The notes beneath the pieces were generated by a model, which searched no databases, was not told where the DNA came from, and saw nothing but the letters and a program-made list of their open reading frames with translations. This document shows positions 31,023 to 39,379 of a stretch of DNA of 64,000 nt, piece after piece (within the stretch, counting starts at the first letter, position 1; each line of letters starts with the position of its first letter). The DNA comes from Patellaria atrata CBS 101060. Its lineage: Eukaryota. Where the stretch lies: the NCBI GenBank assembly GCA_010093705.1, contig MU006093.1:491557-555556 (forward strand), read 5' to 3'. A program made the translations under genes and the position numbers.

Positions 31023-32265
31023 TTTCCTTTCCCTCCCTCCCCATTTCCCAGAACATAACAGGACAGTACACACCGCATGATCCGACTTCCTCCGAAGAAC
31101 AACACCGAAACACCCCCCCTCCCCCCTTTTCCCCGCACCAAACCATATAGACTACTTGAAAAACTTGAGGGGGGAGTGAGGAAAGGGGCATGACGCTTCT
31201 AAAGTGCATTTAAGCCCTTTCGAACCATGAAAGCAAAAACAGGGGAAAGAGGCAAGGGGGAAACTAAATATATAAGAAACATACGAGTACTCTCCAACCC
31301 TAATCAACAGATATACCTTTCCTTAAATCCTCACCTTCCCTAGCAGAAAAAAAAAAAGGGGGGGGAAATCATGAAACCCACATAACCTTTACACCCTCTA
31401 ATCTCCCCATCCCCTCATCCCTAGATCCCATCAAAGCACATCAGAGACAGTCGATTACAATAGAACTCATCATCAGATACAGAAAAGAACCCGCACATGA
31501 GTCGACTGATACCGGCAAACTCCCATGACAGGCCTTGAACGCAAATAGCCTTAGCCCTCCTTTCCTTTTCGTCGAGGCCTGTAGTCACCTTCCTAGGCCA
31601 TGAGTTGGGGGTTTCCCATCTCTTGATCGTCATGGAAAATCGTATTAAGCTGACCCAGAATCTAAGGGGAAAACGGCGGTCCAGGATCCAAGCTCATAGG
31701 ATATACCCCAATCTCACCATCAAACTCTCTCCTCTTAATCAATAGTAATATAATCACATAGAACCATCACATTAACAAGTGAACATAAAACCCAATCTCG
31801 ATTCTTTCTATGCTAACGAAACTGATACATAACTACCAAACAATCACGCCTTTAAAACCCGAACCCCGCACCTAAGTGAAAGGGCCACGCCTTGCAAGGG
31901 AAAATGAAAGGGAAAGCCTGCATATGATGTAAAGAAAAGGAAATTATGATGAGAGGGAAAGAAGTGGTGAAAGGGTAGCTGGGAACCTAAGGGAGGGAAA
32001 GGGGAAATATGCTTTGCCTGAATCTCGAGAACCTGAAATACCAAATACCAAATCTGAATACAACTGTCAAGGCGGCCTAATGATCATTAACTATCGTCTA
32101 TCGTCCATCGTACTTCTTGTCCTCCATACAATATCCCCATTTCAACTTTTTTGTGTGGTCCATGTTCTTTCATGTGTAGCCTATCTTGGTTGTCATTAGT
32201 GGCTTTCGTGAATGGACATTGTTCAACCCTTAGAGGATGATGTCAGTTATTTTTACAATTCTGAC

Positions 32266-33792
32266 TTAGGAAGTAGTAATTAAGGGTTCCTCGGCAGTCC
32301 TCTTTTCGGATACGGGATCCGATTTGGGAGCGATGGGGAAGTCCTTGGTGTTCACTTCAGGGCTAGCAGATCTACCCCTCGCATTGCCAATGTATTCGGA
32401 CGCCTTATTAGTATACTCGTGGGTGTATGACTTCAAGGTGGCTGAAGCATTGCTGGTATGTTGAGCCGCAAGATCCTTGATTTGAGTAGCCTGTTGGCCC
32501 ACGATTGTACGGCCCTGCTCAAGCTGAGCATCGATTACGTCCTTGTTCTTGATATAAATAAGAGGACCGAGGTAAACGATTGATGTACCGATGAGGCTGA
32601 GACCCCAAAGTGGGACCACCTTGATCAAGTAGTACGAAAGGAAAGCTCCGAAGAAAGCCTATGGATGTAAGTAGAGTTCCCTAGCTACTTCAGAATCGAT
32701 ACTAACCGCTCCGGTGACATAGACATTCTCAGCAAACACAACACGTTGGAACTCGATCACAAAGAAGTTGATGAGTTGCTCGAAATCGTCCAGGAATCGC
32801 TCAAGAGACTCCTTAGGGATGGTGAAGTACTTCTTCGGACGAATTTGAGTTGTGAGACCCTTTCCGAATGCCAGACTGCCGGCAAGCTCTGCAGCTGCGG
32901 TGACTTTTGTATGTTAGCGGTGTGGTCTTTCCCGGAGCGGGCACGATGTTACATACTACCAAATACCAAGTAGGAGATGCGGAAGAACCATCTCAGGATT
33001 GGGAGATATCGAGCCGCGAAGATGAAGAGAATAGAGGCGACGAAAGAGATGGATGTAGCACGAGGGTTCTTCCACTGCAAACTATTAGCGTCACATTCGG
33101 TAATAAATAGATGGCATACATACGCTCAAGAGTCTATAGAACATAGAGTGGTAGTCTATGAGTGATTAGTATTATGATATCGCGACGTCTTCTTCATTTA
33201 CGTACGGGTCAAGGGCTGGCCAGTAGCGGCGGGGGCATCGGGTATCGTGCGAGAGTCCATAAGATCACGGAACTCATTGGATGTAATTTGAGACTGCTCT
33301 TTGGCAACCTGAGCCACCGGAGCTGCATGGTGTTAGTGTTATTGAGGAATTCTGAAGCTCGTGTGTAACTGTTGCAGCCCGTCAGTAAAGCCTGTGGTGG
33401 TGATGATGATGCAGTCAAGATGCGCATACCTAACCATTATTTACAGCATCCATGACGTTCTGAGTAGCGGGATGATTCTTGATAGTTTCCGTAGCTTGTT
33501 GTGCAGCTGTTATTTAGTTAATATGGAGGCGAAGGGGAAGATTCGTGCAGAGGCAGATAAGGAAAACTGGTGATGGACAAACAAGTTGGTTAGTCTAGAT
33601 TTCGGCAAAGGAGGGACGACCGTGACGCCATTTACATACCTCACAGCTCAAAACAGTCTGCTTCGCCTTATTCAAATTTTCTTGATTCAGAGTTCCATTG
33701 AGATAGCCATCATTCTGCTCTGTTGATGTCGTAGGATCAAGGCTGGAATGATCGAATGCAGGAGTTTCGATGTGAGGAATATCGCTGCTCAT
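32266..33792 (-). CDS. Reticulon-like protein (Rtn1/Cwl1 family); exons 33792-33645, 33506-33435, 33322-33206, 33155-33124, 33074-32957, 32903-32707, 32658-32266
   Basis: Spliced product has TGQPLTHYHSMFYRLLSWKNPRAT..SF, RPKKYFTIPKE.LE..LDD.EQLINFFVIEFQRVVFAEN and YYLIKVVPLWGLSLI...YLGPLIY.KNK..ID (reticulon domain). All intron phases check out; the first two introns are stwintrons. Confidence 0.93.
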
Positions 33793-34569
33793 TTTGACTT
33801 TTGGAAGGTGTTTTATGTTTGACAAGGTACAAATTGTGCCAGTAAGTTACAGACACAAGACCAGGTTTTGCAGCTGTGTGGACAGGAGAGAGGGAAGATT
33901 TGAAGAAGTTGAAAGTTATTTGGAGCTGGGAAACTAAGTTGAAGTTTTTTGAGAGTTGATAGCAGGTTGTTGTTGGAGGTTTGGAGGAATTTCTTGCTTT
34001 GTTGACTTGTCGTGTGCCTCCCCTTTCGCTACGTAATTTGACGCCTAGCGCGAATGTCCCTTAGGTTGGTCCTCACCTTCACTGGCCACCAAGGACACAA
34101 GTTCTCCACAACTTGGTATGTATAGTGACAACTACTATCTACTACTCTTTCCAAAAGGTGTCGTATCAGACGAGTGAAAGACTTGGTGGGCGTATATTTC
34201 GAGGACCAGAGCGCCAGACAACTTGTACGGTACAGTATGGAGTACAAGTAATGAACGCCTCGAAGTTGAATAATAATTGCATGTGATTCCGTGAAACATG
34301 TAGTTCTAGTTCTCCCAGTTACCAAACTTACCAGCTTCTCTTTTTATTAAAGATCGGCCATTTTCGAGGAGTGCCCCACTTTTTGCTATTCTTAGATTAA
34401 CTCCTTAAGTTGTCACAATATATGGGTCAATAATGAAGCAAATATAGCACTGCAAATGCTATGATTGATTGATTGTGGTACGTGATTGTAGCATTCATAA
34501 CCGATGATTCCATAAACCCCCTTAAGCCGTACCATGACCGTACGCATTGCAGAGACGAAGTCATCATTC

Positions 34570-35414
34570 CTACCTGTAGCGCCAAAGAGACAAAGTGTTG
34601 TGACGCTTCCAGGTCTTCCTGCGGCCAGCCGTTGTCTTGTTGTAGCCGTGACCCTTGCCCAAACCGCGGGACTTCTTGCCGGTTGCGGTAAGTCCACGAG
34701 CCTCGCGATGCTGTTATCTTGCGTCAGTCACGTCTCTATGAGCAGTATGTTGTCAAGGGACCTTCTCACCTTATGGACGGGGTTCACGATCCAGTTGATG
34801 CGAGGATCGCGACGGATGGCTTTGTGTTGAGGATCCACTAGGATGACCTCGTAGTATTTGTATGTTGAGTCCTGGTTGATCCAGTACGAGTTGAGTACGC
34901 GAAGATTGGCGCAACGACGACCCACACGCTCCTCAGCGGTCGACTTAAGAGAGCGTTGATATTTGAGTTGGTTCACACCCTGATTTGTGGGTTTGCCTTT
35001 CATTAACGGGTAAGCCAATTGTTCCTACGATTCCTTTTTGTCCATATCAACATACCATAAGTAGCACCCTTTGGTACAGGTCGCTTCCTTCCTCCTCGCC
35101 TAACTCTCACACGGTAGATAACATAACCTTGCTTGGCTTTGTATCCGAGGCGGCGAGCTTTATCTGGACGAGACGGGCGCGAAGCACGGTGGATGACGTT
35201 CAGTTGGCGGAGCTAAATTGATGCACTCTCAGCAAAGTTCAACGAGTGACATCAAGACGATCAATTTCGACCCCAGCTTGCGCTGAGTGGAAAATGTATA
35301 CGTCGCTCATGTGGGATATTCTCATACCTCCCAGCAGCGGACACGGAGAAGAAAACGCAATACATCGGACTGCTTCTTCTTCTGAAGTTCTTCGACGTAT
35401 TTGAGGGCGCCCAT
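34570..35414 (-). CDS. RPL15: 60S ribosomal protein L15 (eL15); exons 35414-35328, 35212-35056, 34996-34770, 34710-34570
   Basis: [33 protein letters not shown]...[17 protein letters not shown]...[26 protein letters not shown]...LSLWRYR. A 5' UTR intron (35549-35415) ends immediately before the ATG. Confidence 0.98.
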
Positions 35415-38600: not shown

Positions 38601-39379
38601 AAATATGCTGTGCTCCTTATCGCGCTGGCACCACTTGAACACCTGAGCGTATAAAGGAATGATCACGCGTCTCACCGCAGACGCCTTCATCGAAACGAAA
38701 GTCAATCGTCAGGAGCATTAGTAGATGCGGGACGAAGCGTAAGGTAAGAATACGGTGGGATGGTATGAAGTAGGTAAGAATCGCTGGATAGCGTTGTTGG
38801 TGTTGGTGGGGGTAGTTTAAAGGAACGTACTCGTATACTGCGGATTGCAGTAGTGATAAGGTAAGTAGTAAGGTAAGCAGGGTTAAGCTGGAAGAAAAAA
38901 TTATATGAGAAAAATATACGAACTTAACAAAAGTGATATTATCATTGTCAAGCGCGATAATATTTTGATAGGATTGTTAGGGGCTTTTGGCACTAGGTAG
39001 AATTACTTGTGGTGTTGCTTGCAGCGGGAGAGGTCGTTTGAATTGAGGTATGGAGGATCTGCATCAGTGCTTTGTAGCCTTGTGAAGCAATCTCACCAAT
39101 CTTACCTAACCGACTAGCTGGAACGTGGAGAGCTGGTCAGTTCTCAGGCAGGATCCAATTCCTTCCTGGCTGGTCACCTGCTCTTACCTTTGCTGCGGAC
39201 AATTTCTCAAGCGAATCAAGCGAACATGCCTATCACAAGGGTGTCACGGCTATTTTCTGTAAATCACTAAATCTTGACCTTTCTAACCAGTCGCAAGAAG
39301 AACAAGCGTGGAACAATTCCCAAGCCAATCTTTTAGGGCCAGCGTCACCAAGTAGAGAGGCGTGAGAGGCACCAAAAGC

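Follow-up and report, generated by a model that had tools for sequence, protein, structure and literature searches.

How the first two introns of a reticulon-like gene are removed, when each of them carries another complete intron inside its own donor site, is the question raised by a locus in a 64,000-nucleotide stretch of the Patellaria atrata CBS 101060 genome (contig MU006093.1; the whole stretch is hereafter called the window). Read on the minus strand and spliced at the outer boundaries of both introns, the locus encodes a protein of 358 residues, from a model with six introns in phases 1, 1, 1, 0, 1 and 0 and a stop codon that ends at position 32266 (Table 1). This spliced model is identical, letter for letter, to the P. 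atrata CBS 101060 reticulon-like protein at NCBI (P0001, 358 residues), which indicates that the public annotation likewise uses the outer boundaries. Matches to the Pfam Reticulon family (PF02453) come from exons V, VI and VII, whose translations give E-values of 9e-6, 3e-7 and 3e-8, respectively, and the exon VII match is the only one of the three that lies above the curated Pfam cut-off. Searched against proteins, exon VII found 116 homologues, headed by the 358-residue P. atrata protein at 100% identity, and comparison of the full model with 28 homologues, the Helminthosporium solani protein P0030 among them, gave identities of 54-63%. With its reticulon domain, its six intron positions and phase 1 at positions 1 and 2, the gene is the orthologue of Aspergillus nidulans rtnA in this dothideomycete of the order Patellariales. 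Upstream of it, on the same strand, lies the gene for ribosomal protein eL15 (34570-35212, minus strand; Pfam Ribosomal_L15e, E-value 2e-38), and a search of positions 32000-35000 for known RNA families returned no match at E-values up to 1, that is, no known snoRNA or other RNA in the introns. Contigs from two public runs of one sample, probably of DNA and perhaps the very data from which the assembly was made, cover the locus fully and contain no joints, which makes them uninformative on expression.

Table 1. Exons, whole stwintrons and nested introns of the P. atrata rtnA orthologue (positions in the window; all features read on the minus strand)
Feature	Positions	Strand	Description
Exon I	33645..33792	-	ATG 33792-33790; 148 nt, ends in phase 1; spliced translation identical to P0001
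Stwintron 1, whole	33507..33644	-	138 nt, phase 1; position conserved in orthologues
Inner intron of stwintron 1	33567..33639	-	73 nt: GTATGT, branch ACTAAC, CAG; next base T
Outer intron 1, 3' part	33507..33566	-	With GTGAG 33644-33640 forms 65-nt intron GTGAGT..ATTAAC..CAG
Exon II	33435..33506	-	72 nt, phase 1 to phase 1, 24 conserved residues
Stwintron 2, whole	33323..33434	-	112 nt, phase 1
Inner intron of stwintron 2	33369..33429	-	61 nt: GTATGC, branch ACTGAC, CAG; next base T
Outer intron 2, 3' part	33323..33368	-	With GTTAG 33434-33430 forms 51-nt intron GTTAGT..ACTAAC..CAG
Exons III-VII	32266..33322	-	Reticulon domain; ordinary introns 33205-33156, 33123-33075, 32956-32904, 32706-32659

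At each of the first two introns, nucleotides 5 and 6 of a U2 intron's donor are separated by another U2 intron, short, complete and ordinary; this is the arrangement of a [D5,6] stwintron. At both places, taking out the inner intron rebuilds a six-nucleotide donor (GTGAGT and GTTAGT, respectively), and the outer intron has a branch site and an acceptor of its own. A first-pass annotation, made earlier from the letters of the window, had described two [D5,6] stwintrons here; its coordinates and motifs are all present base for base when the minus strand is read, and the anatomy at both introns bears out the architecture that it claimed. Compared with the published consensus for U2 introns (donor GURWGH, branch DYURAY, acceptor HAG; PMC6616335), the rebuilt GTTAGT has a T at position 3 that falls outside GURWGH, yet the same hexamer is the donor of the ordinary intron 6 of this gene. 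As transcribed, the outer donors carry G at position 6, where all four ordinary introns of the gene have T. The reading frame singles out the outer boundaries: among the 16 combinations of outer and inner donors and acceptors, the outer-to-outer choice at both introns is the one that gives the 358-residue protein, and the remaining 15 meet a stop after 66-104 residues, in agreement with the earlier statement that only the outer boundaries restore the reticulon frame. Between the first stwintron and the second one at position 2 lies a short in-frame exon II, phase-symmetric as the first-pass annotation had it, and a transcript joining exon I to exon III through the outer sites would read in frame for 334 residues.

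Whether such a doubled arrangement was already on record had been left as a query, and it is. Nearly all Pezizomycotina have a [D5,6] stwintron at the first position of rtnA, and a second one at position 2 has been predicted in many Dothideomycetes (the orders named are Pleosporales, Hysteriales and Botryosphaeriales), Lecanoromycetes and Xylonomycetes; the intron at position 2 of other classes is an ordinary one (Kavalecz et al. 2019, Sci Rep 9:9940, PMC6616335). The same study verified both stwintrons experimentally in H. solani, and in its supplement the H. solani intermediates MK410465 and MK410466 read ..GTGAGT.. at each site; the H. solani cDNA and intermediate sequences were compared with ours by eye only. 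For the species checked, its Table S1 gives a gap between the stwintron ranges of 72 nt in H. solani, Hysterium pulicare, four Alternaria, six Bipolaris and Ascochyta rabiei, of 60 nt in Botryosphaeria dothidea and of 84 nt in Beverwykella, and the name Patellaria has no match in the supplement. The double arrangement is thus already in print, and the species and its order are the addition: the Patellariales join the groups published as having the double [D5,6] rtnA stwintron, and have retained its 72-nt exon and abutting donors, a result of little significance beyond confirmation.

The H. solani gene is the closest published counterpart in kind, sharing with that of P. atrata the gene itself, both intron positions, phase 1, the GTGAG/GT-type nesting (slashes mark boundaries throughout) and a 72-nt exon II whose peptide is clearly homologous. 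The two differ in order, Patellariales not being among those named in PMC6616335, in the length of the second stwintron (112 nt in P. atrata versus 290 nt in H. solani), in the donor rebuilt at intron 2 (GTTAGT versus GTGAGT) and in the nature of the evidence, which is experimental for H. solani whereas P. atrata is known from sequence alone. Stwintron-linked exon skipping in Aspergillus reticulon-like genes, which the first-pass annotation cited as established, is indeed described (PMC6616335). The rtnA genes of A. niger and Neurospora crassa share the first stwintron, and in them an alternative inner acceptor allows pairing of the rebuilt donor with the intron 2 acceptor; they have a secondary (3'-extended) stwintron, an ordinary intron 2 and an exon II of 15 or 33 nt, and skipping has been shown, whereas in P. 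atrata intron 2 is itself a stwintron and the alternative acceptor proposed is its inner acceptor. In the Lipomyces reticulon-like gene, U2 introns are likewise nested in the donor of the first intron and donor duplication has been raised as an origin, with [D4,5], [D6,7] and [D7,8] as the nesting points and a Lipomyces-specific intron position (Ag et al. 2020, PMC7138796). The Onygenales share a multi-step removal in which the stwintron and intron 2 of one gene take part; there the sequence between the two is intronic and is removed by a fourth reaction, whereas exon II of P. atrata is coding and conserved. Recursive or nested splicing in animals has in common with these cases a splice site that an earlier splicing reaction has first to create; the animal cases concern very long introns with the site rebuilt at the exon-intron joint, and not a site inside the 6-nt donor of a 50-140-nt fungal intron.

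Conservation was followed in metagenome contigs scanned with a 29-homologue alignment, of which we considered the best 80 of 225 confirmed loci, many of them intron-free, transcript-like contigs and some of them genomic. Within these best 80 of 225, six distinct genomic loci have a 5-nt outer donor abutting a GT at position 2, namely L013, L018, L023, L068, L072 (near-identical to L074) and L079 (near-identical to L057). Exon II measures 72 nt in L013, L018, L023, L068 and L072 (one tally gives five loci, four of them distinct, by taking the near-identical L072 and L074 separately) and 60 nt in L079. When the window and the six environmental orthologues are aligned, AATG/GTNAG/GTNNG is invariant in all seven at intron 2 and GTNAG/GT in six of the seven at intron 1, with L079 as the exception, and the rest of both introns is poorly conserved (mean column identity 51-56% in the two alignments). 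At intron 1 the inner branch site and acceptor are retained in five of six orthologues. At intron 2 a consensus inner branch site is found in four of the five orthologous loci scored (L013, L023 and the near-identical L072 and L074) and in L068 there is none; a candidate inner acceptor followed by A, C or T is present in six of the seven sequences, the following base being T in the window and L072, A in L013 and L023, and C in L068 and L079, the inner branch site and acceptor of L079 having been read by eye only. The intron 2 of L018 has only an acceptor followed by G and no clear inner branch site. The earlier expectation that relatives would keep both the abutting donors and the T after the inner acceptor is met by the donors and not by the T, which alternates with A or C; this base mostly fits the H of the published donor consensus.

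Departures from the nested arrangement occur in the same material. At L079:2694-2838, and in L057, intron 1 reads GTAAGA and then GTGGGT, a 1-nt shift by which a complete 6-nt outer donor abuts a weak inner donor, and intron 2 of this locus is still of the [D5,6] type. An ordinary intron occupies position 2 in L031, L044, L053 and L070, and position 2 has no intron, with the first stwintron kept, in L015/16/76, L025/27, L042 and L073/75/77.

Transcript-like sequences and public gene models of relatives bear on the use of these sites. L010 is the cDNA of the genomic locus L018, 100% identical to it in blocks and with gaps exactly at the outer boundaries. The RNA-like contig L009, which resembles Pleosporales proteins, has one continuous reticulon frame with all other introns gone and a 48-nt interruption at position 2 (L009:276-326), and the retained 48 nt read GTGAGA..AACTGAC..CAG; L009 looks like a splicing intermediate of a second stwintron, whose inner intron would already have been removed. 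Among the 88 homologous proteins that have both flanks, 14 carry insertions at the first site and 8 at the second; the models concerned are P0014, P0026, P0034, P0078, P0002, P0009, P0069, P0080 and others. In the examples translated by hand, the insertions begin as would a translated outer intron from which the inner one has gone; gene predictors thus see the inner introns in those genomes. Public rtnA gene models thus often mishandle both stwintron sites, and stwintrons mislead gene predictors.

The abutting donors were also set against chance within the 64-kb window, where the pattern GTNAGGTRWGH occurs 8 times against 1.28 expected, a number reached in none of 100 shuffles. The six matches other than those of the two stwintrons (at 38739, 38868, 39100, 41180, 44335 and 48304) all fall within short GTAAG-like repeats. 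Inspected by eye over some 275 nt each, their surroundings show no coding context, the rest of the architecture is missing, and we rejected them as stwintron candidates. Because these six lie in such repeats, the enrichment of the pattern taken alone is a weak argument, and conservation is the stronger one against a chance origin.

Anatomy, frame, orthology and conservation are established for P. atrata, and a two-step route is probably the main one by which both introns leave the transcript, an order that others have shown in H. solani and that we infer here from that species and L009. U1 pairs with donors of the consensus MAG/GURAGU. Because of this pairing consensus and of the G at position 6 of the outer donors, the inner donors should be recognised first: set in the better context (AG/GTATG), they would be joined to the nearest branch site and acceptor, and the inner introns would be removed. 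The loss of 73 or 61 nt would bring a T next to GTGAG or GTTAG and so create the usable donor GTGAGT or GTTAGT, and the remaining outer intron of 65 or 51 nt would be excised in a second reaction. Four reactions would in this manner join exons I, II and III, with exon II normally kept.

Two other routes through the same sites have to be weighed against this order. Splicing in one step, GTGAGG and GTTAGG being joined straight to the distal acceptors while the inner sites stay unused or give only unproductive by-products, would yield the same mRNA and is compatible with the DNA, and for the abutting donors of Lipomyces starkeyi the same intervening sequence is described as removable in one or two reactions (PMC7138796). 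We consider it unlikely in P. atrata, however: it leaves unaccounted for the inner GT..G that stays invariant beside the outer 5-mer (in 7/7 sequences at intron 2 and 6/7 at intron 1) in introns that otherwise drift, as well as the inner branch site and acceptor kept at intron 1, the inner branch site at intron 2 being kept in L013, L023 and L072/L074 only; position 6 of the donor is T, not G, in every ordinary intron of the gene; and intermediates have been published for H. solani (PMC6616335), with L009 intermediate-like in its turn. The other route is the ordered switch put forward by the first-pass annotation, in which inner donor 1 (33639) would be spliced to inner acceptor 2 (33369), rebuilding GTGAG+T, and then to the acceptor at 33323, so that a regulated 334-residue isoform would result. 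This proposal is formally sound, in that the rebuilt 51-nt intron begins with GTGAGT and the 72-nt exon is dropped in frame, and stwintron-dependent skipping of exon II, by way of other alternative acceptors, has been shown for A. niger and N. crassa rtnA (PMC6616335); that the exon is in fact skipped, let alone in an ordered switch, finds no support in the collections that we searched and is improbable. None of the 88 homologous proteins with both flanks is devoid of exon II and 66 of them have exactly 24 residues there; among the best 80 of 225 loci, none of the transcript-like contigs that have a 24-residue exon II passes directly from exon I to exon III; the exon-II peptide is one of the better conserved N-terminal parts, with H61, P62, T64, Q65 and N73 invariant or nearly so; and the inner intron used for skipping would span 271 nt and pass over a nearer acceptor. 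Isoforms devoid of exon II are found neither among the 116 homologous proteins, a collection clustered at 90% identity in which a rare isoform could be hidden, nor among the best 80 of 225 environmental loci, and their lack in these collections is absence of evidence only. Skipping across two stwintrons, a proposal with no counterpart in the accessible parts of the open-access stwintron literature, would, if true, add a new kind of ordered alternative splicing to those of fungi, in which exon definition is for the most part lacking.

How the second site arose is a separate matter, and the answer considered here is compatible with the two-step route. The first-pass annotation had suggested the duplication of a stwintron-exon unit; in the form examined here, the two junctions would be paralogues: a 24-codon unit, duplicated in tandem long ago, would have carried a phase-1 intron, nested or not, to the second place. 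In a profile of the 29 homologues, the 9-24 columns that end at junction 1 match best at columns ending exactly at junction 2, ranking first of 331 to 310 across the whole protein; with 9 columns the score is 10.6 and the next best 4.5. The junction consensus sequences are NAKNSLLNS and NLKDTVANG, the junctions lie 24 columns apart and both are in phase 1, sequence-wise scores point in the same direction as the profile, and a subset of four sequences from the alignment, taken by guess and not by taxonomy to lie mostly outside the Pleosporales, also ranks the junction pair first. Because the 29 sequences are related, this signal amounts to about one ancestral observation, and in the P. atrata protein itself the junction pair, at rank 39 of 333, is not detectable. 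At the DNA level in this genome the suggestion finds no support: the similarity scores between the two exon-end-plus-stwintron units in the window are reached by 151, 351, 247 and 201 of 500 shuffles, and the units have no more than their splice motifs in common. The ordinary intron at position 2 in other classes (PMC6616335), as in several of the loci above, further means that the nesting there could have arisen later. Extra tandem copies of the NHPITQ.. part of exon II are present in L037:554-583, L043:397-438 and P0112, that is, the exon-II region duplicates readily in some relatives. On balance the duplication is possible but doubtful, with modest evidence at the level of the protein profile, and the accessible parts of the open-access stwintron literature hold no proposal of such an origin for the second rtnA stwintron; the likeness of the exon ends in the profile is a testable hint at an internal duplication as the source of the second site. 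A reading that combines the 24-codon duplication, twin intron included, with a switch between four and two steps, in which inner donor 1 could still pair with inner acceptor 2 because both units share the GTNAG/GT..AG/H logic and 24 residues would be removed, is very unlikely as a whole.

Two short sequences inside stwintron 1 are conserved across orders. TTGCCGAR lies at 33601-33608 on the minus strand, upstream of the inner branch site (alignment columns 62-70), and CTTATCTGC lies at 33553-33561 on the same strand, right after the inner acceptor (columns 118-127). The latter is present in the window, L013, L018 and L023 and partly in L068 and L079, and can also be made out in the H. solani intermediate that has been published. 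On the opposite strand it carries a GATA-type core.
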